From Reclinomonas americana ATCC 50394 (taxonomy: Eukaryota), in the NCBI GenBank assembly GCA_048213135.1, contig PS015546.1:6740-50988 (forward strand): a stretch of 44,249 nt of DNA. The letters are read 5' to 3'. Positions within the stretch are counted from its first letter, which is position 1, and each line of letters begins with the position of its first letter. Under the pieces are notes generated by a model. That model searched no databases, was not told the origin of the DNA, and saw nothing but the letters and a program-made list of their open reading frames with translations. Shown one piece after another: positions 1,024-43,497 of the stretch. Both the position numbers and the translations under genes were made by a program.

Positions 1024-3803
1024 TCACTCGGGCAGCACCTGGATACCGGCAATCGGGCACGGAGTGTTGTAATAACCGCATTGTGGTGGGTACGAATCGC
1101 CGACCTTGACCGACAGGCACCGCATGCAGTACTCGGTCTGGCAGTGCTGGCACTTGAGATGCTTGCAGGCATCGGCGTGCTCTGCGCGCGCACGGCACGG
1201 GTGGGTGAGTTGTTGCGGAAGGGGATGAGAGGAGAGGGGAGGGGAGGAGAAGAGAGAGAAAGAGAGGAGAGNNNNNNNNNNNNNNNNNNNNNNNNNNNNN
1301 NNNNNNNNNNNNNNNNNNNNNNNNNNNNNNNNNNNNNNNNNNNNNNNNNNNNNNNNNNNNNNNNNNNNNNNNNNNNNNNNNNNNNNNNNNNNNNNNNNNN
1401 AGAGGAGAGGAGAGAGCACATCACACACACCTTGCACGGCGTGGCATTTGGGGCACGCGCGCGTCGTCGGCACCAGTCCGTGTTGTTGCTCGAAAGGCCA
1501 GATGACCTGCACACAACCACCCACGAAGAGGTCAGCACACAGTGCTTCACCTGCTCTCCCCTGCATCGTCACGCACCTTGCACTGCGCATTCCGCAGCAG
1601 ATCATTTGGCGAGTAGCAATCGCGATTTCCGCAGTGGGTCCGCGAGGAGCCTTCCCACTTCTTCTCGCAGCGCAGGCAGAAATGGGTGTTGCACATGCCG
1701 CACACAGCATCGCGGTCATTAGGGTTGTCGGGCATGCAGGCGGTCTTGCACTGTGCGCACACACACACACACACCACGAGCGTGTCAGCAGCGGGCGTTC
1801 ACATTCGCGCGACAGGAACCAGCCACGCAACTGTTGGGCACGTCTTCACGTTGCCCATCAGGAACTGCTCATTCAGCAACTCGTAGTACGCCATGGACAC
1901 CTGCTCAAAGTTGCGCTGTCCAGCAGCGTGTTGCACCACCACAATCGGGACGACTACGCAAGAGGTTGAGGGGTTAGTCGCCGGCGGGCGAAACAACAAC
2001 TACAAGAGCACAGTCGTACCGGTGCCGCAGTTGGTCTTGGCGCACTGCAGTGCACGAGTCTCTCGTCGCTGCACCTGGCTTCGCAGCAGGTCCTCAATGC
2101 TGCACAAGAATGTGAGAATCGGCGAGTCCAGAAAAAGTGTGGCGCAATTCTATTTCCACCACGCACCACTCATCGCAAATGCCATGTCCACACGACAGGC
2201 GGTAGCAGGCCTTGTCGCGCGCCATGCAGCTGGCACACTGCAGACCAACGGCCAGATCGACACCGGACGGAATCGTGACAATGCGTCGGCGTGATGCCGC
2301 CGTCTGCAGAGACGATTGCGCCTGCGCCGCCGGAGCTGCTGATCGTTACGCACACGTGAGTATCATACACACCGCCACTCAGACACACATGCATACACAC
2401 AAACCTTGTGTGGCCGTTGGAGAGTTGGCGTGGATCGGTGTAATGTCGCTGTGTGCGCGTGTGTGCGTGACATGAGTTTCGATAAAGTGCGGTGCACATC
2501 TTGTGGCGCACGGTTACGCAACGCGTCATCCACCCAGTAGCCCTTTTCTGGTCGCTGCGGACATCCGGCAAGCGCAGCCTGAATCGGGAACGTGCTGCCC
2601 GATCGCAAATCATCGCGGTCCCAGAACACGTAGCTGACGATAACGAAACACATACACGGCCGCGACCCGTAAGACGACTGCATCAAATTCATGTTCTGTA
2701 GAAACCGCGCACTCACCAGGTAGGTGGCACGTCGTCGCGGTGATAGAACGTGCCTTGATCTGTGCGATCGCGCGTAAGCACCAAAAACACGCAGCAGCAA
2801 CAACAACACACGCACACGCAGGCACGCACCGCCCACACGAATGGGTCCGACCGGGCGAATGGCGCGGACACGAGTTCCCGGCACCATCGGACGGCGCGAC
2901 GACGCCGCCGACGAATCATCGTCCGAATCTGCACCACCCGACTCTTGTATCGCCCGCTGCAACATCGTCAAGAACCCATGCAAATCGTCGGCAGCCTGAA
3001 TGATGATGAATACAGCAATAACAATGAGTCAATCACAATGTGCGAAATCGAGAAAGGGGGGTCTTCGGAGTGCGATCTTTCTCGCGAATGTCACTGAACA
3101 ATAGCGTACGACAGTGCCAGACACAGCAGCAGAGTGCGAGCGAGATTCCCGACTGCTCCGCACATGTTGTTTCTCTCATGCGCACCAGTCAAAATAACTC
3201 TCAAGGAATGTGGGAGAGAGAGAGAGAGAGGGAGTGAGTGAGTGTGTGTGCAGGGGAGACAGTGTGTGTGTGCGTGTGTGCAAGGGTGAGATTGTGTGTG
3301 TCCGCGTTCGATCAGTGCTCTCATTCTCGCGTGTCTGCCTCTCTCTCACTCTCCTCTCTCTCTCTCTTCCAGTGCATGTGTGTACACCAGAGCAGTGCGC
3401 GCGCACGAACGCGTCCTCTCACACAGACACATACACACAGACGTCATGACTGGACACCAACTCCGCACACACACACTCAGTGAGACAGAGACACACACGC
3501 AACTGCCTGCTGTGAGGGCCCTGGTGCGGCCTGCTGCTGCTGCGGCGGGCGCGGTCGCGGCGGCAACACCAAGTCCTTGCGCTTCATACACGCATTGCAC
3601 AAGTCAAAGTCGCAGCCCTTGACACAGCGATGCCGCCCAACCGCCGTCACTTGCCCGGGCGACACTTGCCGCGAGCATCCGTCGCAGCGGAAGCCGTAGT
3701 TTCCGGCGTGAGCGGCGTCCTTGAAGCGCTCGTTGAACTTGGGATCGTCGGCGCGGCCGAGAGGGTGAGGGTGCGTGTGGTGCGTGGAGGTGTTGGAGCC
3801 CAT
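1024..3803 (-). CDS. RBR (RING1-IBR-RING2) E3 ubiquitin ligase with N-terminal ZZ-type zinc finger and CPH domain; multi-exon
   Basis: ZZ: CDGC...RHRCVKGCDFDLCNAC. CPH-like: PGTRVRAIRPVGPIRVGDQGTFYHRDDVPPTCYVFWD...GYWV. RING1: CASC...LSCGHGIC...LQCAKTNC. IBR: KTCPTC...VCGMCNTHFCLRC. RING2: RACPKC...EHADACKHLKCQHCQTEYCMRC, with the catalytic Cys-x-His. The ZZ exon is joined by an inferred phase-0 intron (3503 to ~2997). Confidence 0.85.
1272..1400. other. Assembly gap (N run) inside an RBR-gene intron
   Basis: Run of N flanked by GA-rich sequence. Confidence 0.98.
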
Positions 3804-4105
3804 CTGTCACTCTCTTACTCACACACACTCACTGCGTGGAAGACAGCAAGAAGCAAGTGGGTTCGAGACTGTGAGAGAGGCGGCGCGTGTGTCGAAGTTT
3901 TTCCGTCAAATGTGCACCTCAACTCTGTTCGCTAGCTGCGTGGCGGAGGAGTGTACGCGAGGGTGTGCGAGTGGACAGCGACGATGCCTTGTTGCCCTCT
4001 CGCAAACACCACAAAGAGAGACACAAGAACGTCTAATGGATCGCAGGACGTGCATGACACGCAACCTTACACAACAACTTTGTTTCATTAACAATAAACA
4101 GTGCA

Positions 4106-7100
4106 TTAGGGGGCCGAGGTGAACGACTCGTCGAGGGAGGCGTCTCCGGCGGCGGCGTTTGCGGCTGCGGCGACGGAGGCGTCGTCGGTGGCGCCGTAGA
4201 CGGTGGCGAGGCGATCGAGCATGTGTGAGGTGGCTTGGCAGGCGGTGAGGAGCTCGAGCATGCTGCCGTTGAGGACGCGGAAGATGAAGACGCCAATGTG
4301 CTGGCGGCGGTCGAGGCCGGTGTAGTATTCGATGGATTTGCCGAGCACGCTGGTGGCGTCGCCGAGGGCCGACAGGCGCGGATCAAAGAGGAAGTTGACG
4401 AATTCCAGCTCGTAGTCGCTGACGGCCTTGGCGGTGGAGGGTGCGGCGGTGGTGGCCGGCGAGGCGCCACTGCCTGTGCTGTGGCTGGCGCCGCCGGCAC
4501 TGCTGGCGCCTCCTCCGTTGGTCGGCGTCTGCATGGTGCTGGACGAGGCGAACGAGCTCGGCGTGAGGGCAGAGGCCGCGGCCAGTGACGTGCTGCTGCC
4601 GCCGCCTCCGCCACCGCCGGCACTGCCAGGAACAGTGCTGCGCGACGACTGCAACGCGGCCGCGTAGGTAAGCTGGCGCTTGACGGCGGCGATCATGTTG
4701 CGCACGCGGGTGTTGAGGCGCGGGATCTTGGTGAGGTTGGTGGTCACAAAGATCGGCCGCTCAAACGCACTCTCCAAGTCCACCAGCACTCGCTCCGCGG
4801 CGTCGTAGTAGTGCGAAAACACATTGATCTTCGCATCGGGGATCTCCACCAGCCGCTGATCACTCTTGCCCTCCTTGCTCTGCACCACCACCACGAAATA
4901 GTATGAGAATGCATGCGCACCACCACCGTACACATGGCAAGCGACGCACGCACGCACCTCGAAGAACACGAGTTTCTCCAGCACAAACACGGTGCCGGAG
5001 AGGCGGTCCCAGACCACGTCGTCGGTGGGCGCCATCACCTTTTGTCCAAAGTTGGCCTCCAGCAGCTTCAAACTCACCGTGTACGTTGGCTCGGTACTGC
5101 TGCCAGTGCCGCCACTCGCCGACGCGCTGCTGCCGCCACCAGCCGCCATGTGCGGCAGCACCGCCACCGACAGGTTCGTCAGCATGATCACGACTTCGCC
5201 GCGCAGTGAACGCGCGTTCGCGGCTTCGGTGGCCGACGCCGAGTCGAGCGTACCGCCGCCCGCCTCGTGCGACACACGGCTGTCGTCAGCCGTGTCTCCG
5301 TCGCCGTCGCCGAGGTCCGGCACGGTGATGGTGGTGTGGTACCGCTTCTTGGACAACCGCAATGTGCTGGCCGAGAGCGGCTCCACCCCGATCGCCGGTG
5401 TGCTCGCCGACGACAGCATGCCGTGCACATGCGCAGCGCCAGCGCCGGTCGCCCGCGACAACATACCGAGCACGCCACCGGAATGACCACCGCCGCCGCC
5501 ACCCACACCGTTTCCACCATGGCCGACAGCACCGCCGCCGCCGCCACTGTTGCTACCGCCACCAGCACCTCCACTGCCACGCGGCACGGTGTTGGTACTG
5601 AATCGGTGCGTGCGCTCGCGCTCGAGCACACTTTGCACGGATTTGACGGCATGGTCATGCGCATCGACCACCATCTTGCTCACACTGTGTTGCGATAGAT
5701 GAGTGCGCCACGATGAAGCACGAGAAGCACAAGCAATCATAATAGAGCTGCCTCACCGGGATCCCACGGCAATCAGTTCAAACGCATTCGTCGCGACCTC
5801 CACGCGAATGCCGTCGGAGATCACACGAGCCTTGAGCCACACCGACTCGCTGCCCTGCAGCAGATCGTCGCGATACTTGACCACCTGCTGCTGCGCCGAC
5901 AGCGACAACACACTGGCACCCTCGTACTGCACGTCGGCACGAATGTGGTTGACGGCGGCAAAGCACACATTCAGCACTCGCTTGCCCGACATGTCCACGT
6001 CCACCGGTCGGCGAATAACACCAATGCCGACACTGGTCACCGCGAGACTGCCGCTCAGCGAGCCCGCCAGCTCTGCCGCCGCGCGCAATACGGTGGCTCG
6101 GAAGGCCGAAATGCGCGTGCCCTCAGTCGGATCCTCGTACCGACTGTGTGAAGCGGATGAGTTTGAGGGGGAGGGGGCAGTTAGAAGGAACAAATCATGT
6201 GGGGACGCAACAGCTTCAGCTCGCAACCAATGTTGCTAAAGGTGGTGACCTGATGGCCGATACCGCGAACCGTGGTGTCGATCTTCACCTCGCCCAACAT
6301 GATGTTCACAAGCAGTGGCATCTGTGACGAAATGAACACGCCCCGGGCAGCCTCGGCAGCCGACACGGTTGCCGCGGGTGACGCTGGACCCACCGGTGCC
6401 ACAACTGCGCACAGACGCATCGTGAGTGCCTTGACAATTGGGTTAGGAGAGAGCAACAACGCAACATGCTCCCCCGGCACCGCGCGCAGAGGTTGGTGTG
6501 GACCGACGGCGCGCCCGATCTCTGTCGAGAGACTCGTACATGCGCGCCTCCACATTTGTCTTCAGCGGCGACCTGCAAGAGAGTGTGTGGTACATTCCGT
6601 GTGAACAAACGGCACGCACCAAGAAGAAAATGCCTGTTGGACAAGCAACGACGCAACGTAATGGACTTGCCGCCCTGTGCACCATGTAGCAGACTGCCGA
6701 CCTCGTCTGTGACCTTGCCGAGAATGTGTCGTGCCTCCAGCGCCTTGGCCTTCCACAGCTCCAAGAAGCGGAAAAAGCGACCGCTCTCCTCCAACTTGCA
6801 CGCCACTCGCACGTGATGCATGGCCGACAGCAGGAACACCACCGGCACCTCCTCGCCGGCCACATCGGCAACCTACACGAATGCGCGTGGTCAGGAGACG
6901 TTTCCACATGCTCGTGTGCTGCACGGACACCGCTCACCCTGTGCGAGTGCGTGTTCCATCCGGTGATCTGCACGTCGAAGAAACCCTGCTGACGGTTCTG
7001 CAAGTCGTACAACTGCGCCACCACAGAATCAAACGGTGAGGAACATGAAACAAGCACCACAGATGGTTGCCGTCGCCGCAACTTGCAACACGATTGACGG

Positions 7101-22100: not shown

Positions 22101-23814
22101 AGGCGACTTGGTGAGGTCGTCAGCACTGCGTTGGAGAAAGTAGCCGGGAGGCGAGTTCACAAAGTTGCGGCCGATACTCCTCCCTGGCTGGACACGGAAC
22201 GGAGCCGTTCCTGTGTCTGTATCGTCTGTCGACATGAACGGTCGGCCGGTAATGTCAGAGTTCATGGGATCAGTCATGGGGTCGGGTTCTGTGGCAGACG
22301 GGTGTGCGTGAGAAGTGGCACGAGGTACGGTGTGATGGAAGGAGCATTATTTCAAACCAGCAGCGAAGCGATCCTGCCGAGCACCGCGGTACGACGTGGA
22401 GTGAGAGGCGGAGGCGTCGGGCGGAGCCTCTTGCTGACCACGCATGTTGCGGAAGAAGCGACGCAGGCCGCGTGTTGCCACACGGAAGAAGCTGTGCATG
22501 ATGTTGCGCGTCAGCAAAAAACGACGGCGACAGCCAAGCTTCTGAGAAGCGTAACGCAACGCTTCATCGGCCTCCTCCAGCTTGTCATTGATCTGCTCCT
22601 GTGGCTTGCGATAGTCGCGATTCTCACGCAAGAACAGCTCGGCTGCATACAAGCGCGACTCGACGACCATGCGGTAAAGGTCACAGGGGATGGGTGCCTC
22701 TTGAGCGAAAATGAGGCCCTCGGCAGTCTCGAAACTCAGCACCGCCATGCTGCGAATCGCCGGGTTGCCGACCATGACACAGCCCTTCTCCACCATCACA
22801 GCAATGTTGCGCAGCCGTGAAAAGATCTTTGGCAGCCCACGCTCGTACACAGGCGGTGGCGCAGGTGGAGGCTCGGCGACGGGCTTGCTCGGCTTCTTCT
22901 TGGACTTGCTCGCGTTGCCCGACGCACCACCGCCACCGGCAGCAGCCGCCGCCGCAGCAGCAGCAGCAGCAGACGTCGTCGTCGATGCAGACGACGCACC
23001 ACGAGGACGCGGCAGAACATTGTCTCGCTGACCATCCATGGACGTTCGCGGGCTGCCGCACACAAGCACATGAGCGCAATGGAACACTCGGGTGTCTCTG
23101 CAGAGACACACACACACCTCTTGCCCTGTCGTCGCCGCAGCCGCGGATCGCCCGACGCATCGGTGCCATAGGCCATCTCAAAGTGCTCCGCTCCTGCACA
23201 CACAGTCGACGTGGTAAGCAAGAGAACGAGCGCGAGACGAACCCGACGCAAAAGACGCAACGCCGCTGTTCAATCAGCTCCTTCAAGTGATCGTACTTGG
23301 CAATGTTATTGTACACCAGCACCTCCAGCCCATGCAAGCGCACCGACAGCCGCCCCACCGGCGTCGTCACCTCATCAAGAATGCGCGGTCGATGTCGCCA
23401 CCACCACAGCGTAACATACCCATCTGCCACAATGCAATCAATCCATGCACGCACGCAGTCATCCATGGATCTTTCTCTCTCTTTGTGCTCACCAACGACT
23501 CTCACGCCGAAATCCTGCGTGTACAGTCGCAGAGAGCGGAAGAAGATGCGTCCGGCCAGTGGCGCAAACGACACTGATCCGACCTCAAAGTACGAGTTGT
23601 CGTCGCAGTAGAGCCAGCGCACAAGCACAGACACGAGGAAGCCGCACACGCGTGATGCGTAGAACACATAGACCACCAAGCTCACGGCGAATGACACCTG
23701 TCATTGTGCGTGTGAGTGGGAGTGCGTGTGTGCGCAGGAAAGTGTGTGCGTGTGTGTGCCAGACGGAACAATCGCCACGAGGATCTTGAACTCGGTGGTG
23801 CTTCCGCCGGCCAT
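4106..23814 (-). CDS. BLTP1: Bridge-like lipid transfer protein 1 (KIAA1109/Tweek/LPD-3/Csf1 family); giant multi-exon gene
   Basis: N-terminal TM plus family signature YASRVCGFLVSVLVRWLY..SYFEVGSVSFAPLAGRIFFRSLRLYTQDFGVRVVDGYVTLWWWR. FSA_C-like C-terminus: IPDAKINVFSH..VLVDLESAFERPIFVTTNL..FDPRLSALGD..HIGVFIFRVLNGSM. Minus-strand exons linked by GT-AG introns lie between; not every junction was verified. Confidence 0.88.
12066..12168 (-). repeat. CAG/CAC/CAT trinucleotide tract encoding poly-Gln/His in BLTP1
   Basis: Translates to HQQRHHHAQQHHHQHHQHHQQHQQHQQHQQHQQR. Confidence 0.9.
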
Positions 23815-23923
23815 TGCGCGTGGCACGAAGAAGGGCGACGAGCACTGCTCAACTCCCCCACACTATAAATGCAATGCAGTGATCAATGCACGGGACATGT
23901 GAAGTTTTATTGCCGCTGCGAAG

Positions 23924-25252
23924 TCATCTAAAGCCCGAGAGCAGCAGCAGCGATTGTAGTGTGACAGGTCGGCGACATGCTGGGCATTCCGGCTGCGCGT
24001 GCGCGAGAATGAGAACAAGAAAGCCACCTCGGTCGACGTTTGAGCACGACGGACCTTGGCGTTGCACCAATCGACAATGCAGTTCCAGCAAAAGATGTGA
24101 CCGCACTCGGTGGCGGTGGGTGCGCGACGACGAGTGGTCTGGCAGATCAAGCAGCGACCGGTGTGCGTACGCACCGATCCGTTCCCTTTGTCTTCGTCAT
24201 CCTCTTCCTCCTCCTCTTCGTCCTCCTCTTTTGCGGTCTCGTCGGCAGGTTTCGCAGCGACCGCTATGCGTCGGAAAATGGTAATCGCACTGGTGATGCC
24301 CAGTTGAATGAGAATGAGCCAGCCGACCAGCGTGTACGGCCGCTCCGTGTCGGGTGGCGACTTGAGCGGACCCGTGTGCCGCAACTGCGCGCCAGTCGTC
24401 GCAGTGAGTCGCAGGCACACGCAGCAAGCACGAGGGGTGCAGCACGCAACAAAGCGCACGCCTGCCACGCGCTTCGAGATGTGAAAGAACGGTCCGCCGA
24501 GGTAGAACAGCGCCAAGTGCAATCGCGACAACAGGCCAACCAGAGGCGGTAATCGCTCCAAGACGCGTCGCAGCACGTGCAGCCATGGTGGTCGCCACAC
24601 CGCTGGGGCGAGGGGGGCGGGCAAGTAAGGAAACAAGAACGACGGAGGTTGGAGATGGAGAGATGCAAAGTGCGCAACTTCGTTCGCGTCGGAGACACCA
24701 CTGCAGAGCGGCCACGCGTGATGACTCGAGGAGTCGAGGGGCGAGGCATTGCAGCAGCACGTGCGTCCATCGTCGCTGTCAAGGAGAGGTCAGTGAGAGG
24801 GAGAGAGCGAGGGGAGAAGAGAAGGACGCAGAGAGCGATCTCTCACCGGTGTTGATGGGTAATCCTGCGTGTCGTGTGTCACCTGCACGATGCCGCAGTA
24901 CTCTTCGCCGAGGGTTTGGAGGCCTTGATGCGGAGGAGATGAGCAGAGGAGCAGAGTGGAGAGAGAGATAGAAAGAGAGAGACCTCGTCCAGTGGTCACC
25001 AAGTGGCACGCCAGTTCCGAAACCAAGACGCTCTCGTTGAGCCACTGGCGCTGCACGCGGGAGCCTATGCGTGTGCGGAGTGAGGAGGGGCGGAGAGTGT
25101 GTGAGAGAGAGAGAGAGAGAGAGAGTGTTGTGACCGAGTAATCTCTCCAGCACATCGTTGAGTTCGTTGACCAGTCGCATGGCGACATAGCCGTCCTTTT
25201 GTGCAGCGCGAAGCACGTGGGCAGAGGAGGCGGGTGGGAACACCGTTGGCAT
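23924..25252 (-). CDS. PEX10: Peroxisome biogenesis RING E3 ligase PEX10
   Basis: MPTVFPPASSAHVLRAAQKD; conserved G-LQTLGEEYCGIVQV; LHLALFYLGGPFFHISKRVAGVRF; C-terminal RING CLIC...TATECGHIFCWNCIVDWC..PECPACR. Confidence 0.93.
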
Positions 25253-35365: not shown

Positions 35366-36830
35366 TCACTCTTCGTCTTCGTCCATCATCTGCGCCGCCA
35401 TCTCCATGTCCACATCGTCGGGTTCGGGCACCGAGTTGGCCGCCTGCTCCTGCGTTATCGGCTGCTGCTGCTGCTGCTGCTGCTGACTGAGTCTCTTCAG
35501 CTCCAACGCCCGTTCGTAGTTCTCTTCCACTTTCCGCGCCTCGTCAAAGTCCATTTCCGCCTCCTCCGATGGTGACTGCGCACGAGAGCTCTGCACGCGC
35601 GCGCATACGTCAGCAACCTGCAGGTGGCGCGCGCGAGTGTGTGGGTGTGTGCAACACGCACCGCTCGACTCGACTCTTCTCCGTCGCTCTCCTGGTGAAT
35701 CGTCCACTCCTGCTCGCCATCGTCGTCGTCGTCGTCGTCGTGATTGTCGCGACGCGGTGGAGCGGCATTGGCCCGCTTGTTGCCAGCCCGGGCCTGCTGC
35801 CGAGGCGGCGGTGAAGGTGAGTCGCGAGCTCCCGGCATGGCCGCCTCGCGCAACACGTCGAAATCGGGGAACTCCTCCTCGGGCGGCGCATCCACACCAC
35901 GCAGCTTGCGATTCAGCCGATGCAACTCCTCCTACGCGCCCATCGTGAGTATAAACGCATACACAGGCACGCCTGCTTCTCCAAGCGACAGACCTCAATC
36001 TCCTGCCGCCGTCCCCAGTGCGAGATCTCGTCGCAAAAGTCGGCAAACCTGGCGTTCGGGAACACATCGTGCGCCCACGCCTGCATCACCTCCAGCAGCG
36101 CACGCAAATCGCGCCCCTCCTGTCCCGCTCCACGCAAACGCACCGCCTTGCACTGTGCCAGCAGCGACTCCAAGCCACGCGATCCCAGCAGCACCGGCGG
36201 CTGCAACTTGGGCTTCGGCGTCCGCTTGCTCTTCAGCACCGGCGCCGGCTCGCCACCCGGGACGTTCACTGTGCGCGTGCAGGCATGAGACAGATGCGGA
36301 AAGGGGGTGGGGTTGGGGGAGAAGAGGCGACGAAACGGGGATCGTGTGCCTCCACCAGCATCGGGTCGTCGCCAGCACCGCCAGCAGTGGTCACCACAGC
36401 GCGGTTGGCGCGGCCTTCTTGCAGAGAGACCATCGGTGGCATGCGAGAGGAAGAGGAGGAGGAGGGAGCGGCGGCCGCAGCAGCAGCCGCTCGTTGCTGT
36501 GAGAATAGGGAAGGTGAGAGAGGGGTAAGGGAGGGAGGAGAGGAAGAGACAGTGAAAGAGAGACGAGGATAAGATGACTTGGGCAGAGTTCGAGAGCGAG
36601 GACAAGGACAGCAGAGAAAGGAGGCAAGGGGACGTGACAGACTTGGAGACACTAGAGAAAGGAGGGAGAGTGTGGTGGAGAGAGATGAGGAGGGTGCAAG
36701 TGACTGGGGCACAGAGAGAGAGGAAACAGGAAGAGAGAGACAGACGAGTTACACTCTTGCCCTCCCTCTCTTGCCCTCTCTCTCTCACTCACGCAACTGA
36801 ACGTGCCGATCGCCCATACAAGTCACTCAT
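35366..36830 (-). CDS. TIPIN: TIMELESS-interacting protein / Swi3 / Csm3 (replication fork protection)
   Basis: Swi3 domain: KRTPKPKLQPPVLLGSRGLESL..RLRGAGQEGRDLRALLEVMQAWAHDVFPNARFADFCDEISHWGRRQEIE; acidic tail. First exon MSDLYGRSARS is inferred. Confidence 0.85.
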
Positions 36831-39566: not shown

Positions 39567-42500
39567 ATGAAGATCATTGACCGCCTTCACCAGGCGCTCG
39601 ACGAGGGCCGCATTGTGTACTCCTTTGAGTACTTTCCTCCGGTGCGTTGTGTGCGCGTGTGAGAGAGAGAGAAGACAAGCGGAAGTGGGGGCACATGTGC
39701 ATCAGCTCATGTCGCCCCCCAAAACACACGTACTTGCACTTGCACACTCTCTCTGTCTTCTCTCCCTGTGTGTGTGTGTGTGTGTGTAGATGTGCAGGTC
39801 ATCGTGCACTTGTCCACGTGTTTTGCCACAATGCTCACTCTTCTCTCTGTGTGTGTGCAGAAAACCGATGCTGGTGTGCAGAACCTGTACGACCGCCTGC
39901 AGCGTATGAAGGAGTACAAGCCGCTCTTTGTTGACGTCACATGGGGCGCCGGAGGTAATGATCGAATTTGATTCTTTGAAATACGTGGGAGGCGGCTTTT
40001 TCTCCGCGAAAAGTTCTCACGCTCTTCTCTCTCACTTTTGTGCTGTTTTTCTCCCTTTTCTGCATCTCTTCTGCTGTTGCTCTTGCTTCTGTTCCAGTCA
40101 TCGTTCATCCTTGTCTACATCCTCTCATGTCTCTTTCTGTCTTCCGTCCCTTCGTTTGCATTTCTTGCCCTTCTCTTCATTCTCGCGCTCCTCATGCGTC
40201 CTTCACTGCTTCGCTTTCGCTCACTCTCTCCCTCTCTCCCTTGCCTCTCAAACTCCCTCTTTCTCTCCCCCCTCCGCTTATCTTGCTTTCCCTTCCCTTC
40301 TTCTTTGTCTCTCCCCTCCCTTCCCTTCCCTTCCCTTCCCTTCCCTTCCCTTCCCTTCCCTTCCCTTCCCTTCCCCCTTCTCACCCCCGTCTCTTCCCTC
40401 CCCCCAGGCTCCACCTCCACCATGACCATGGAGCTGTGCACGTCGATCCAAAACATCATCGGCATGGAGGCACAGATGCATCTGACGTGCACCAACATGC
40501 CCAAGGAGAAGATCGATCAGGCGCTCAAGCACTGCAAGGAGGTCGGCATTCGCAACATTCTGGCCCTGCGTGGAGGTCTGTTGGGCTCTGTGCCGTTTGC
40601 TGTTTGATCGACTCACTGACTCAACACGCTGCTCGCACCAGATCCACCGGCTGGTCAGGAGCGGTGGGAGGCCGTCGAGGGCGGCTTTTCACATGCTGCC
40701 GACTTGGTGCGCTACATTCGCCGCGAGTACGGCGACTTCTTTGGCATTGCCGTGGCCGGCTACCCGGAGGGACACCCCGAGTGCACCGACTACCAAGCCG
40801 ACCTGCAGCACCTGAAGGAGAAGGTCGACGCTGGCGCCGATTTCATTGTCACGCAGCTCTTCTTCGACTGCGACAAGTTCCTGCAGTTTGTGCAGGTGAG
40901 CGAAGCGTCATGGAGTGTGTTCAGTTGATGGAGTGGGATTATCGATGGACCTGTTGTGCATTCACAGTGCGACCTCGTTTCTCCAGTGTCTTTCTCCTTG
41001 GTTGCCTTCCTCTCCATCTTCCCCCCTCCGTCTTCTCCCTCCGTCTTCCCCTTCCGACTTCCCCCTCCGTCTTCCTCCTCCGTCTTCCTCCTTCCGACTT
41101 CCCCCTCCGTCTTCCTCCTCCGTCTTCCCCCTTCCGTCTTCCCCCTTCCGTCTTCCCCCTTCCGTCTTCCCCCTTCCGTCTTCCCCCCTTCCGTCTTCCC
41201 TCGTTCCGTCTTCCCCCCTCCGTCTTCCCCCTCCGTCTTCCCCCTTCCGTCTTCTCCCCTCCGTNNNNNNNNNNNNNNNNNNNNNNNNNNNNNNNNNNNN
41301 NNNNNNNNNNNNNNNNNNNNNNNNNNNNNNNNNNNNNNNNNNNNNNNNNNNNNNNNNNNNNNNNNNNNNNNNNNNNNNNNNNNNNNNNNNNNNNNNNNNN
41401 NNNNNNNNNNNNNNNNNNNNNNNNNNNNNNNNNNNNNNNNNNNNNNNNNNNNNNNNNNNNNNNNNNNNNNNNNNNNNNNNNNNNNNNNNNNNNNNNNNNN
41501 NNNNNNNNNNNNNNNNNNNNNNNNNNNNNNNNNNNNNNNNNNNNNNNNNNNNNNNNNNNNNNNNNNNNNNNNNNNNNNNNNNNNNNNNNNNNNNNNNNNN
41601 NNNNNNNNNNNNNNNNNNNNNNNNNNNNNNNNNNNNNNNNNNNNNNNNNNNNNNNNNNNNNNNNNNNNNNNNNNNNNNNNNNNNNNNNNNNNNNNNNNNT
41701 TCCGTCTTCCCCCTTCCGTCTTCTCTCCCTCCGTCTTCTCCACCTCCGTCTTCTCCCTCCGTCTTCTCTCCCTCCGTCTTCCCCCTCTGTCTTCCCCCTC
41801 CGTCTTCCCCCTCCGTCTTCCCCCTTCCGTCTTCCCCCCTCCGTCTTCCCCCTCCCCCTTTCTCTTTCTCATCCCTTCCCTTTTCTCACCCGCTTTCATC
41901 CCCCGCAGGACTGCCGCGCCCTCGGCATCCACTGCCCGATCGTCCCCGGCATCCTGCCGATTTCCAACTACCAGTCGTTCCGCCGCTTCACCCAGTTCTG
42001 CAAGACGCACATTCCGCCGCAGGTGGAGGAGGAGCTGGCCGCACTGCGCACTGTTGCGTAATCATTCTTGCACTTTTTCTTTTCTCTCTCTCTCTCCATC
42101 CGTCTCACTCTTGCGCAGGACGACGACGAGGCCGTGAAGGAGTACGGCATCAAGCTGGGCGTCCGCATGTGCCAGTACCTCATGGAGCGCGGAGTGCGCG
42201 CCCTGCACTTTTACACACTCAACTTGGAGAAGAGTGTGACCAGCATCATTGAGGGCCTGCACTTGGCGCCCTCTCGCAAGCGCTCTGTCCCATGGGAGCC
42301 GGTGAGTTGTGATGCACTCCCTTCTTTGCTGTTCTCCCCTCCCCCTCCGGCTCACCCCCTCCACGCACAGTCACAAACCCGCGATGAGGAAGTGCGCCCG
42401 ATTTTCTGGTCCAACCGACCCACCTCGTACCTGGCACGCACATCCATGTGGGACGAGTTCCCGAACGGCCGCTGGGGCGATCGTCGCTCTCCGGCCTACG

Positions 42501-43497
42501 CCGGCATGGACCACCACTATCTGTGCCAGCCGAAGATCTCGACCGCCGAGCGCCTCGCCATGTGGGGCGCGGAGCCGTCGGCGGAGGCCGACCTGCAGGA
42601 GGTTTTCATCAAGTTCATCCGCGGCCAGGTCGCCGTCCTCCCGTGGTCACTCGTGCCGATGAACGAGGAGACCAAGCTCATTTCGGAGCCACTGTTGTCA
42701 CTCAACTCGCGCGGCTTCTGGACCATCAACTCACAGGTATTTGTGTGTCGTTTTCTCTTGTGTGGCATCATCCCTTCACTCACCTCCTCGCACAGCCGTC
42801 CGTCAACGGTGTGGTGTCGACGGATCCGGCCGTCGGATGGGGCCCGGAGAACGGCTACGTGTACCAAAAGGCGTACATTGAGTTCTTCTGCTCGCCCGAC
42901 AAGTTTGAGACGCTGCGCGCACGTCTGGAGGATCGCGCTCGCTTCCCGTCACTGACCTACCAGGCGACGAACATGCGTGGCGACGTGACCCACTCCAACT
43001 GCTCCTCGGTGACAGCCGTCACGTGGGGTGTGTTCCCGGGTCGCGAAATCCTGCAGCCGACAGTCGTCGATCCCAAGTCGTTCGATGCGTGGAAGGTTTG
43101 TCTTGGTGGAGGGCGTGTGTGTGTGTGTGCGTGTGCGTGTGTGTGGAGAGAGTGAGAAGCGACTATGATGATTCCACTGTAACACGCAAGAGGTCTGACT
43201 CGGCGTAGTCTGTGCCGGTGACTGCGTACAATCCAGATCTGACGAATCTGAGTGTCGCTTCCTCTCTCTCTCTCTTTCCTCTCTTTCTATCCAGCCCTTT
43301 CAATCGCTGTGCTCATTTCCCGATACACACAGGACGAGGCCTTTGCGCTGTGGATGGACGAGTGGGGCAAGCTGTACGCCGACGACTCCTCGTCGCGCGC
43401 TCTCATTCAGCGCGTGTGCGACACGTACCTGCTGGTCAACATTGTCGACAATGACTTTGTGCGGGGCAACATTTACGCCGTGTTCGAAGACCTCTGA
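39567..43497 (+). CDS. MTHFR: Methylenetetrahydrofolate reductase (catalytic domain plus C-terminal regulatory domain)
   Basis: [136 protein letters not shown]. Confidence 0.97.
40313..40376 (+). repeat. (CTTCC)n pentanucleotide microsatellite in an MTHFR intron
   Basis: About 11-12 tandem CTTCC units. Confidence 0.9.
41016..41860 (+). repeat. (CCGTCTTCCCCCT)n ~13-14 bp minisatellite in an MTHFR intron, spanning N gap 41265-41699
   Basis: Dozens of CCGTCTTC(C/T)CCCT(T) units on both sides of the gap. Confidence 0.92.
43156..43261 (+). ncRNA. Candidate intronic box C/D snoRNA in the last MTHFR intron
   Basis: C box ATGATGA 43165-43171; D' CTGA 43195-43198; internal hairpin CGGCGTAG/CTGTGCCG; weak C'-like GTGACTG; D box CTGA 43248-43251; terminal stem GAAGCGAC/GTCGCTTC. 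Lies about 80 nt upstream of the 3' splice site (43332). Confidence 0.72.

Follow-up and report, generated by a model that had tools for sequence, protein, structure and literature searches.

A predicted 481-residue ubiquitin ligase with ZZ, CPH-like and RBR modules and without a cullin in Reclinomonas americana

Can a CPH domain serve an RBR (RING1-IBR-RING2, where IBR is in-between-RING) ubiquitin ligase directly, without a cullin and outside the animals? To our knowledge, the pairing of CPH and RBR is unique to vertebrate CUL9. The question is raised by a locus of Reclinomonas americana ATCC 50394 that lies within a stretch of 44,249 nucleotides (assembly GCA_048213135.1, contig PS015546.1, positions 6,740 to 50,988 of the forward strand), referred to below as the window. 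A sequence-only reading of the window had placed at 2440..2890 a CPH domain fused directly to an RBR ligase, with no cullin, as a possible parallel or ancestral form of CUL9 with a ligand other than p53. The analysis described here points to a gene for a 481-residue E3 ubiquitin ligase composed of a ZZ-type zinc finger, a CPH-like domain and an RBR catalytic core, which would bind a non-p53 ligand and would have acquired this pairing independently of CUL9. Taken as a whole, this explanation is favoured with modest confidence.

The predicted gene occupies positions 3803..1024 of the minus strand (all exon and intron coordinates below are on this strand). Its 11 exons join into a single open frame of 481 codons after splicing, as determined by a reading of the three frames together with a coordinate-based model. 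The spliced coding sequence (CDS) is 1446 nt long, remains in frame throughout and ends with a TGA stop codon at 1026-1024; the frame of exon 1 starts with an ATG at 3803, directly after an in-frame stop. GT..AG borders are found in 10 of 10 introns. Eight of the introns are 66-83 nt long, while introns 1 and 10 measure 508 and 249 nt, respectively. The GC content is 0.62 in the CDS compared with 0.54 in the introns, and at third codon positions (GC3) it reaches 0.74 for the coding frame, whereas the other two frames have 0.62 and 0.51. The eukaryote is rich in GC and in introns, and the locus is judged to be a real protein-coding gene, with a predicted gene model.

The splice signals of the predicted ligase gene recur elsewhere in the window. 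Introns 1, 4 and 8 share the donor GTTGCGT (starting at 3503, 2522 and 1831, respectively). This heptamer is present 22 times on the minus strand of the window and six times on the plus strand, with approximately 2.8 occurrences expected per strand, and most of the long frames of the window are on the minus strand, where the heptamer is commoner. The same donor is found in an MTHFR gene on the plus strand: the exon ending at 42052 matches the Pfam MTHFR profile through profile position 238, and the exon that follows a 66-nt GTTGCGT..CAG intron (42053-42118, plus strand) resumes with a first residue at profile position 240. Because this junction checks out against the Pfam profile, both the GTTGCGT donor and the intron size can be considered real features of this genome. 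As a donor consensus GTTGCGT is unusual (T at +3, C at +5) and it might help to place the organism. Three variants of the gene model were tried and rejected: a first exon placed instead within intron 1 is not in phase with exon 2, moving the GTTGCGT donors by 4 nt disrupts the reading frame, and the insert of exon 4 offers no usable GT..AG pair for a hidden intron.

The catalytic part of the predicted protein is encoded by exons 6 to 11. Exon 6 (2167..2338, residues 222-279) carries a linker and the beginning of RING1, and exon 7 (2020..2099, residues 279-306) carries the RING1 end (C298-x4-C303). The complete RING1 pattern is C256-x2-C259-x11-C271-x-H273-x2-C276-x2-C279-x18-C298-x4-C303, a C3HC4 spacing. 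Exon 8 (1832..1953, residues 306-346) encodes the linker between RING1 and the IBR and the first IBR cysteine (C344), and exon 9 (1577..1750, residues 347-404) encodes the IBR zinc finger, which spans C344 to C391. RING2 starts in exon 10 (1431..1506, residues 405-430; C422-x2-C425) and is completed in exon 11 (1024..1181, residues 430-481 and the TGA), giving the pattern C422-x2-C425-x9-C435-x-H437-x2-C440-x2-C443-x4-C448-x2-C451. The intron between these last two exons, intron 10 (1182..1430), spans a run of N at 1272-1400, so its assembled length is only nominal. Exon 11 corresponds to the RING2/Rcat portion with a putative catalytic C435-x-H437 motif, and the protein ends 30 residues past C451.

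The RBR fingers are interrupted by introns and the profile scans were made with single pieces. Exon 6 alone is most similar to the Pfam models zf-RING_5 (E-value: 0.026) and zf-C3HC4_3 (E-value: 0.037) and exon 9 alone to IBR_1 (E-value: 0.013) and IBR (E-value: 0.039), all four matches being under cut-off. Exon 11 alone matches IBR_1 with an E-value of 1.2e-4 (22.3 bits, cut-off 27). Exon 8 alone has no Pfam match. Among solved structures in the PDB, the best match of exon 9 is the IBR of RNF31/HOIP (E-value: 0.015-0.07); the match of exon 11 to the RING2 of ARIH2 (E-value: 2.6) is not significant, the half-domain in exon 6 finds no RBR chain at E<=10 and exon 10 (25 residues) gives no informative match. 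Because three separate exons match the models expected of an RBR, in the expected order, and the ligand patterns are complete, the assignment as RBR can be regarded as safe. The position of C435 suggests that it is the catalytic residue.

No Pfam match to a cullin, APC10/DOC or Ariadne domain was found in the frames of the gene, in the upstream open reading frame (ORF) at 4106-5752 or downstream of the stop, where the best Pfam E-value of any ORF is 0.028 (an unrelated family) and none is significant. Since the frame starts at an ATG after a stop and neither the gene nor its upstream neighbour has a cullin or DOC match, it is confirmed, as the sequence-only reading had claimed, that the ligase has no cullin; its RBR is likewise confirmed not to be of the Ariadne type.

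The N-terminus of the predicted protein contains a module that the sequence-only reading had missed, and the CPH-like domain is therefore not the sole N-terminal module. Exon 1 (3504..3803, residues 1-100, within the ORF 3477..3806) encodes a probable ZZ-type zinc finger followed by a Pro/Gln-rich tail. Its cysteines at positions 40, 43, 60, 64, 69 and 72 have a ZZ-like spacing. The Pfam ZZ model (PF00569) matches exon 1 at profile positions 4-36 of 45 (E-value: 0.011; 16.0 bits, cut-off 21.4). The PDB matches are all weak and include a putative kinase (E-value: 0.041) and the ZZ fingers of HERC2 (E-value: 0.18) and BIG (E-value: 0.44), along with KCMF1 (E-value: 1.2); ZZ is in the titles of six of the seven matches at E<=10. 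To judge by its alignment pattern, the top match (the putative protein kinase) probably also represents a ZZ-type finger. An AlphaFold model of the ZZ exon made without an alignment has a predicted local distance difference test score (pLDDT) of 51.5, which is too poor for fold comparison. In HERC2 and KCMF1, whose ZZ fingers have been solved, these fingers recognise the N-termini of proteins. The predicted ligase itself begins with M-G-S-N-T-S (3786-3803), which fits the N-myristoylation pattern (Gly2, Ser6); this M-G-x-x-x-S pattern alone suggests myristoylation and hence a membrane-attached ligase.

Between the ZZ exon and the RBR lies the CPH-like domain, at approximately residues 139-212, which is distributed over four exons in three frames. 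Exon 2 (2830..2995, residues 101-156) encodes an acidic and Ser-rich linker and then the start of the domain (P139 to G155). Exon 3 (2717..2759, residues 156-170) contributes the motifs GDQGTF and VPP, exon 4 (2523..2633, residues 170-207) the motifs VFWD and GYWV separated by an insert of approximately 25 residues, and exon 5 (2405..2448, residues 207-222) a final strand-like motif (DITPI) followed by a linker. The splice product proposed by the sequence-only reading is recovered without change: residues 139-212 are identical to it, and the insert that separates VFWD from GYWV is the same as well. The quoted stretch is encoded by 2881-2830, 2759-2717, 2633-2523 and 2448-2434, in accordance with the position that had been given, and in the coordinate-based model it is joined to the RING1 exons by a single open frame, which bears out the proposed direct junction.

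The CPH-like character of this domain was evaluated by comparison with published peptides. In the part of PMC3365014 that was available, Table 2 prints human CUL7 residues 376-390 and 386-400 and PARC residues 386-400. An ungapped hand alignment of residues 139-160 to human CUL7 379-400, assembled from these peptides, has 10 identities in 22 positions (P, G, R, V, R, I, G, D, G and F). Its BLOSUM62 raw score, summed by hand, is 48, or approximately 25 bits, and with ungapped Karlin-Altschul constants the E-value is approximately 4e-4 for 25 x 481 residues. The printed CUL7 and PARC peptides also match the first half of the CPH pattern that the sequence-only reading had put forward, and this half can be retained; the second half (VPP, VFW and YWV) is a putative part of the pattern. 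These second-half motifs would be specific to CPH and are not known from Tudor or MIB domains. The CPH fold consists of five beta strands and one helix (PMC12318192). In HERC2 the Cul7/CPH domain adjoins a ZZ domain (PMC3673628), and because the CPH of HERC2 is found beside a ZZ, the context of the middle domain favours CPH. In a proper profile or fold test, this domain would probably prove to be a CPH homologue.

A number of observations weigh against the proposed reading. Neither the unspliced frames nor the single exons match the Cul7/CPH model PF11515 at E<=10, and phmmer of the domain fragments against the PDB returns no CPH chain; exon 4 alone has no Pfam or PDB match at all. These fragments are only 14-37 residues long, too short for the HMMER filters, and the negatives are weak. 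No paper on the second-half CPH motifs was found in a literature text search. The insert of approximately 25 residues between VFWD and GYWV is atypical for CPH, and G-x-R-V...G-x-F...V-x-[FW]-D is common to many SH3-like barrels, including Tudor and MIB/HERC2 domains. When all six frames of the window are considered, the E-value of the CUL7 alignment becomes approximately 0.07, a value that ignores the number of families that a reader could match. As to the other modules, every Pfam match for ZZ, RING and IBR is under its curated cut-off, and the ZZ of exon 1 has no His after C72, such that the usual terminal His pair is absent. Finally, no relatives of the protein were found in word-indexed, exhaustive, metagenome or prokaryote searches. 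The CPH identity proposed by the sequence-only reading is supported in part by the identities to CUL7 379-400, and it is left without a match to PF11515 or to a solved CPH chain by the unspliced fragments.

The searches for relatives covered several parts of the gene. A word-indexed search with the 221-aa frame at 2363-3028 scored 5090 candidates, none of which has E<=1; with the ZZ exon the same type of search found no relative, and with the IBR exon (exon 9) it found no candidate sharing three words. When 1.84 billion representatives were searched exhaustively with the 221-aa frame (phmmer), a single match (P0001) was obtained, which aligns to translated intron only (residues 174-209) and was rejected as low-complexity noise. 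Two loci from a metagenome scan with exon 11 were rejected as unrelated, one a phage-like terminase region (L001) and the other a bacterial MoaA/molybdopterin locus (L002). A prokaryote genome scan with the ZZ exon found none, and the ESM Atlas gave no usable match.

Three other explanations of the locus were considered, of which one concerns the middle domain. The RBR ligase could be real and the domain another SH3-like barrel (of the MIB/HERC2, Tudor or KOW type) or a fold restricted to the lineage, in which case the motif match would be a convergence on a widespread barrel pattern. The lack of a PF11515 or PDB CPH match with any fragment would be consistent with this, as would the 25-residue insert, whose place is taken by a short turn in CPH domains. 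The sole weak Pfam match of the 21-residue domain start, to TOBE_3 (E-value: 0.083), is noise. The literature also blurs CPH and MIB/HERC2: PDB entry 3DKM is named 'CPH domain of HECTD1' in a preprint, and HECTD1 is grouped with the MIB-HERC2 domains in PMC3673628. However, the MIB_HERC2 model (PF06701) and the Tudor and SH3 families are likewise without a match at E<=10 in the same fragments (for MIB_HERC2 a negative as weak as that for PF11515), and a convergence would have to account for ungapped identities to published CUL7 peptides that include P-G-x-R-V-R and I-x-x-G-D-x-G-x-F. A domain of another kind is considered less likely, and the CPH assignment is preferred.

The other two explanations concern the gene model. 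Exon 1 might be a separate small ZZ gene (109 codons, with a stop at 3477), or it might be spliced to another acceptor (3094-3096); in either case the ligase would have Met111 as its first residue and be a 371-residue CPH-like and RBR protein without a ZZ. Intron 1 (2996..3503, GTTGCGT..CAG), a phase 0 intron between the ZZ exon and exon 2, is unusually long at 508 nt against 66-83 nt for the eight short introns, is rich in (GA)n and (GT)n and resembles a repeat-rich spacer. The ZZ frame is open up to its own stop, and the acceptor at 3094-3096 has a pyrimidine fraction of 0.65 at an intron length of 410, with a TGA immediately after it. On the other hand, the donor of intron 1 is the validated GTTGCGT, in phase 0 and eight codons ahead of the stop of the ZZ frame. 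Of five YAG acceptors located 50-520 nt past this donor, that of exon 2 ranks first by pyrimidine tract (0.70), is in phase and provides the sole long open continuation. Intron 10 of the same gene is likewise long and repeat-rich, and no start codon precedes Met111 in exon 2, the first 10 codons of which are open from the acceptor. It is thus quite improbable that exon 1 is separate, and very probable that it is part of the same gene as the RBR exons. If the acceptor at 3094-3096 were used, a 100-residue product with the ZZ only would be made. The remaining explanation, in which the spliced frame is a chance product or an untranslated, decaying pseudogene, would be in keeping with the failure to turn up either a homologue or an annotated protein. 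It is opposed by 11 exons that are in phase without an internal stop, the strong GC3 periodicity, metal-ligand patterns that are complete in each of the three RBR fingers and the validated splice signals, and it is regarded as extremely unlikely.

If the middle domain is a CPH, its ligand is unlikely to be that of CUL7. According to the available part of PMC3365014, the p53-binding surface of CUL7 is formed by the motifs LDDYEE and DEGEF. These align to IRPVGP and DQGTF in the predicted ligase, where all six of the acidic residues in question are replaced and the Tyr is changed to Val. As these positions carry neutral or basic residues instead, binding of the p53 type would not be expected and the ligand would not be p53-like, which agrees with the non-p53 ligand inferred in the sequence-only reading. 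The acidic motifs were treated here as a functional feature that is not required for CPH membership. Other ligands are known for CPH domains: the CPH of HERC2 binds a Lys of NCOA4 via a strand 4 Trp (W2619) and the beta2/beta3 loop (PMC12318192). The CPH-like domain retains two Trp residues, W174 and W203, either of which might correspond to the HERC2 Trp, and its insert sits just ahead of the presumed strand 4.

The proposed mechanism of the ligase combines these modules. RING1 would bind ubiquitin-charged E2, and the ubiquitin would move to C435 in the C-x-H motif of RING2 and then to the substrate. The substrate would be held by the N-terminal part of the protein, which comprises the ZZ-type finger and, approximately 60 residues further, the small beta-rich domain at approximately residues 139-212. 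This beta-rich domain is probably a divergent CPH with a loop insert of approximately 25 residues just before the strand that contacts the ligand in HERC2. A myristoylated N-terminus would cause the ligase to act at a membrane.

The rest of the window includes several other genes and repeats. The upstream neighbour of the ligase gene, the ORF at 4106-5752 (minus strand), has 548 codons with Gly/Ser/Ala runs and no Pfam family at E<=10; near 4880-4960 it contains a GTGCGT..CAG stretch of approximately 75 nt that looks like an in-frame intron. The minus strand also encodes a BLTP1/Csf1 N-terminal region (22681-23700), a RING peroxin of the Pex2/Pex12 type (23863-24789) and a Swi3/Tipin replication fork protection domain (35913-36788), while the MTHFR gene, which includes the regulatory domain, is at 41882-42955 on the plus strand. 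There are two assembly gaps, at 1272-1400 (129 N) and 41265-41699 (435 N), flanked by simple repeats that are CT-rich or Pro/Ser-coding. The spacers and long introns (for example, 3010-3500) contain many (GA)n, (GT)n and (CA)n microsatellites, the translations of which draw spurious low-complexity matches such as P0001. Rfam and tRNA scans of the window found none.

The evolutionary placement of the ligase depends on the origins of the known CPH proteins. According to the available text of PMC11257990, CUL9 arose in vertebrates when a duplicate of CUL7 fused with a gene of the ARIH family; in CUL9 the substrate is held by the CPH and is ubiquitylated by the catalytic Cys of the RBR. HERC2 gained Cul7 and ZZ when the Metazoa arose (PMC3673628). 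Because CUL9 is such a vertebrate CUL7-ARIH fusion and the ligase here has no Ariadne domain, the ligase would not be an ancestor of CUL9. Neither descent from CUL9 nor ancestry of it is supported: of the parallel or ancestral form suggested by the sequence-only reading, the ancestral part is not supported and a parallel architecture is the most that can be kept. In the available part of a survey of 78 genomes (PMC4327156, Fig. S5M/N, the architecture text of which was decoded by hand from a shifted font), each entry with Cul7 and IBR also carries Cullin, and the architecture 'ZZ zf-C3HC4 IBR' is listed in Fig. S5M without Cul7. Among the papers listed that name the 'CPH domain', no protist and no cullin-free RBR was found in the titles and abstract starts; some of these papers use 'cPH' for a PH domain that is unrelated. 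A cullin-free CPH-RBR protein would thus be unrecorded in the eukaryote-wide architecture surveys examined.

The most far-reaching form of the proposal is that a true CPH is present outside animals, in a protist, and is joined to an RBR and a ZZ in a 481-residue, probably myristoylated ligase without detectable relatives. This is put forward tentatively, at slightly below an even chance. If true, CPH would have its origin outside animals and either predates the metazoan set of HERC2, CUL7 and CUL9 or is independent of it, and a CPH holder was combined with an RBR thioester ligase on two occasions, the one here being minimal, free of a cullin and directed at a ligand other than p53. What defines an RBR ligase is the set of domains beside its catalytic core; should CPH fail, the protein would be an ordinary lineage-specific RBR ligase with a beta-barrel head of another kind.

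Comparison with known ligases places the predicted protein among several families. It resembles HOIP/RNF31 and ARIH1/2 in the order RING1-IBR-RING2 and the C-x-H catalytic motif, but lacks the PUB, NZF, UBA and LDD domains of HOIP and the Ariadne domain of ARIH. Another comparison is with Mind bomb (MIB1/2), in which a ZZ flanked by small beta-barrel MIB/HERC2 domains is the substrate-binding head of a RING-type E3. Mind bomb differs in that simple C-terminal RINGs catalyse and ankyrin repeats are present, and the fragments examined here have no MIB_HERC2 match. The ZZ, RING and IBR ligases in the available part of PMC4327156, compared by architecture label only, have the same three modules with no Cul7/CPH listed. 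HERC2 is similar in that CPH and ZZ recognition modules are close together and ahead of an E3 domain of the thioester type (PMC3673628); moreover, its ZZ is among the weak PDB matches of exon 1 and its CPH binds a non-p53 ligand. However, HERC2 has a HECT domain instead of an RBR, its domain order is reversed (here the ZZ precedes the CPH-like domain) and the ligase here is ten times smaller.

The remaining counterpart is CUL9/PARC, which in the available part of the 78-genome survey (PMC4327156) represents the only architecture with both Cul7/CPH and IBR. CUL9 has 2517 residues, ARM repeats, DOC, an RBX1-binding cullin region, neddylation control and an ARIH-type RBR with Ariadne, none of which are found in the ligase here, and the ligase has also not retained the acidic motifs that bind p53. 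Its combination of a CPH-like domain and an RBR would resemble vertebrate CUL9 in principle only and would be of independent origin. If the CPH assignment holds, this ligase would provide a minimal natural system for the presentation of a substrate by CPH to an RBR catalytic Cys, free of the neddylation and the 1.8 MDa scaffold.

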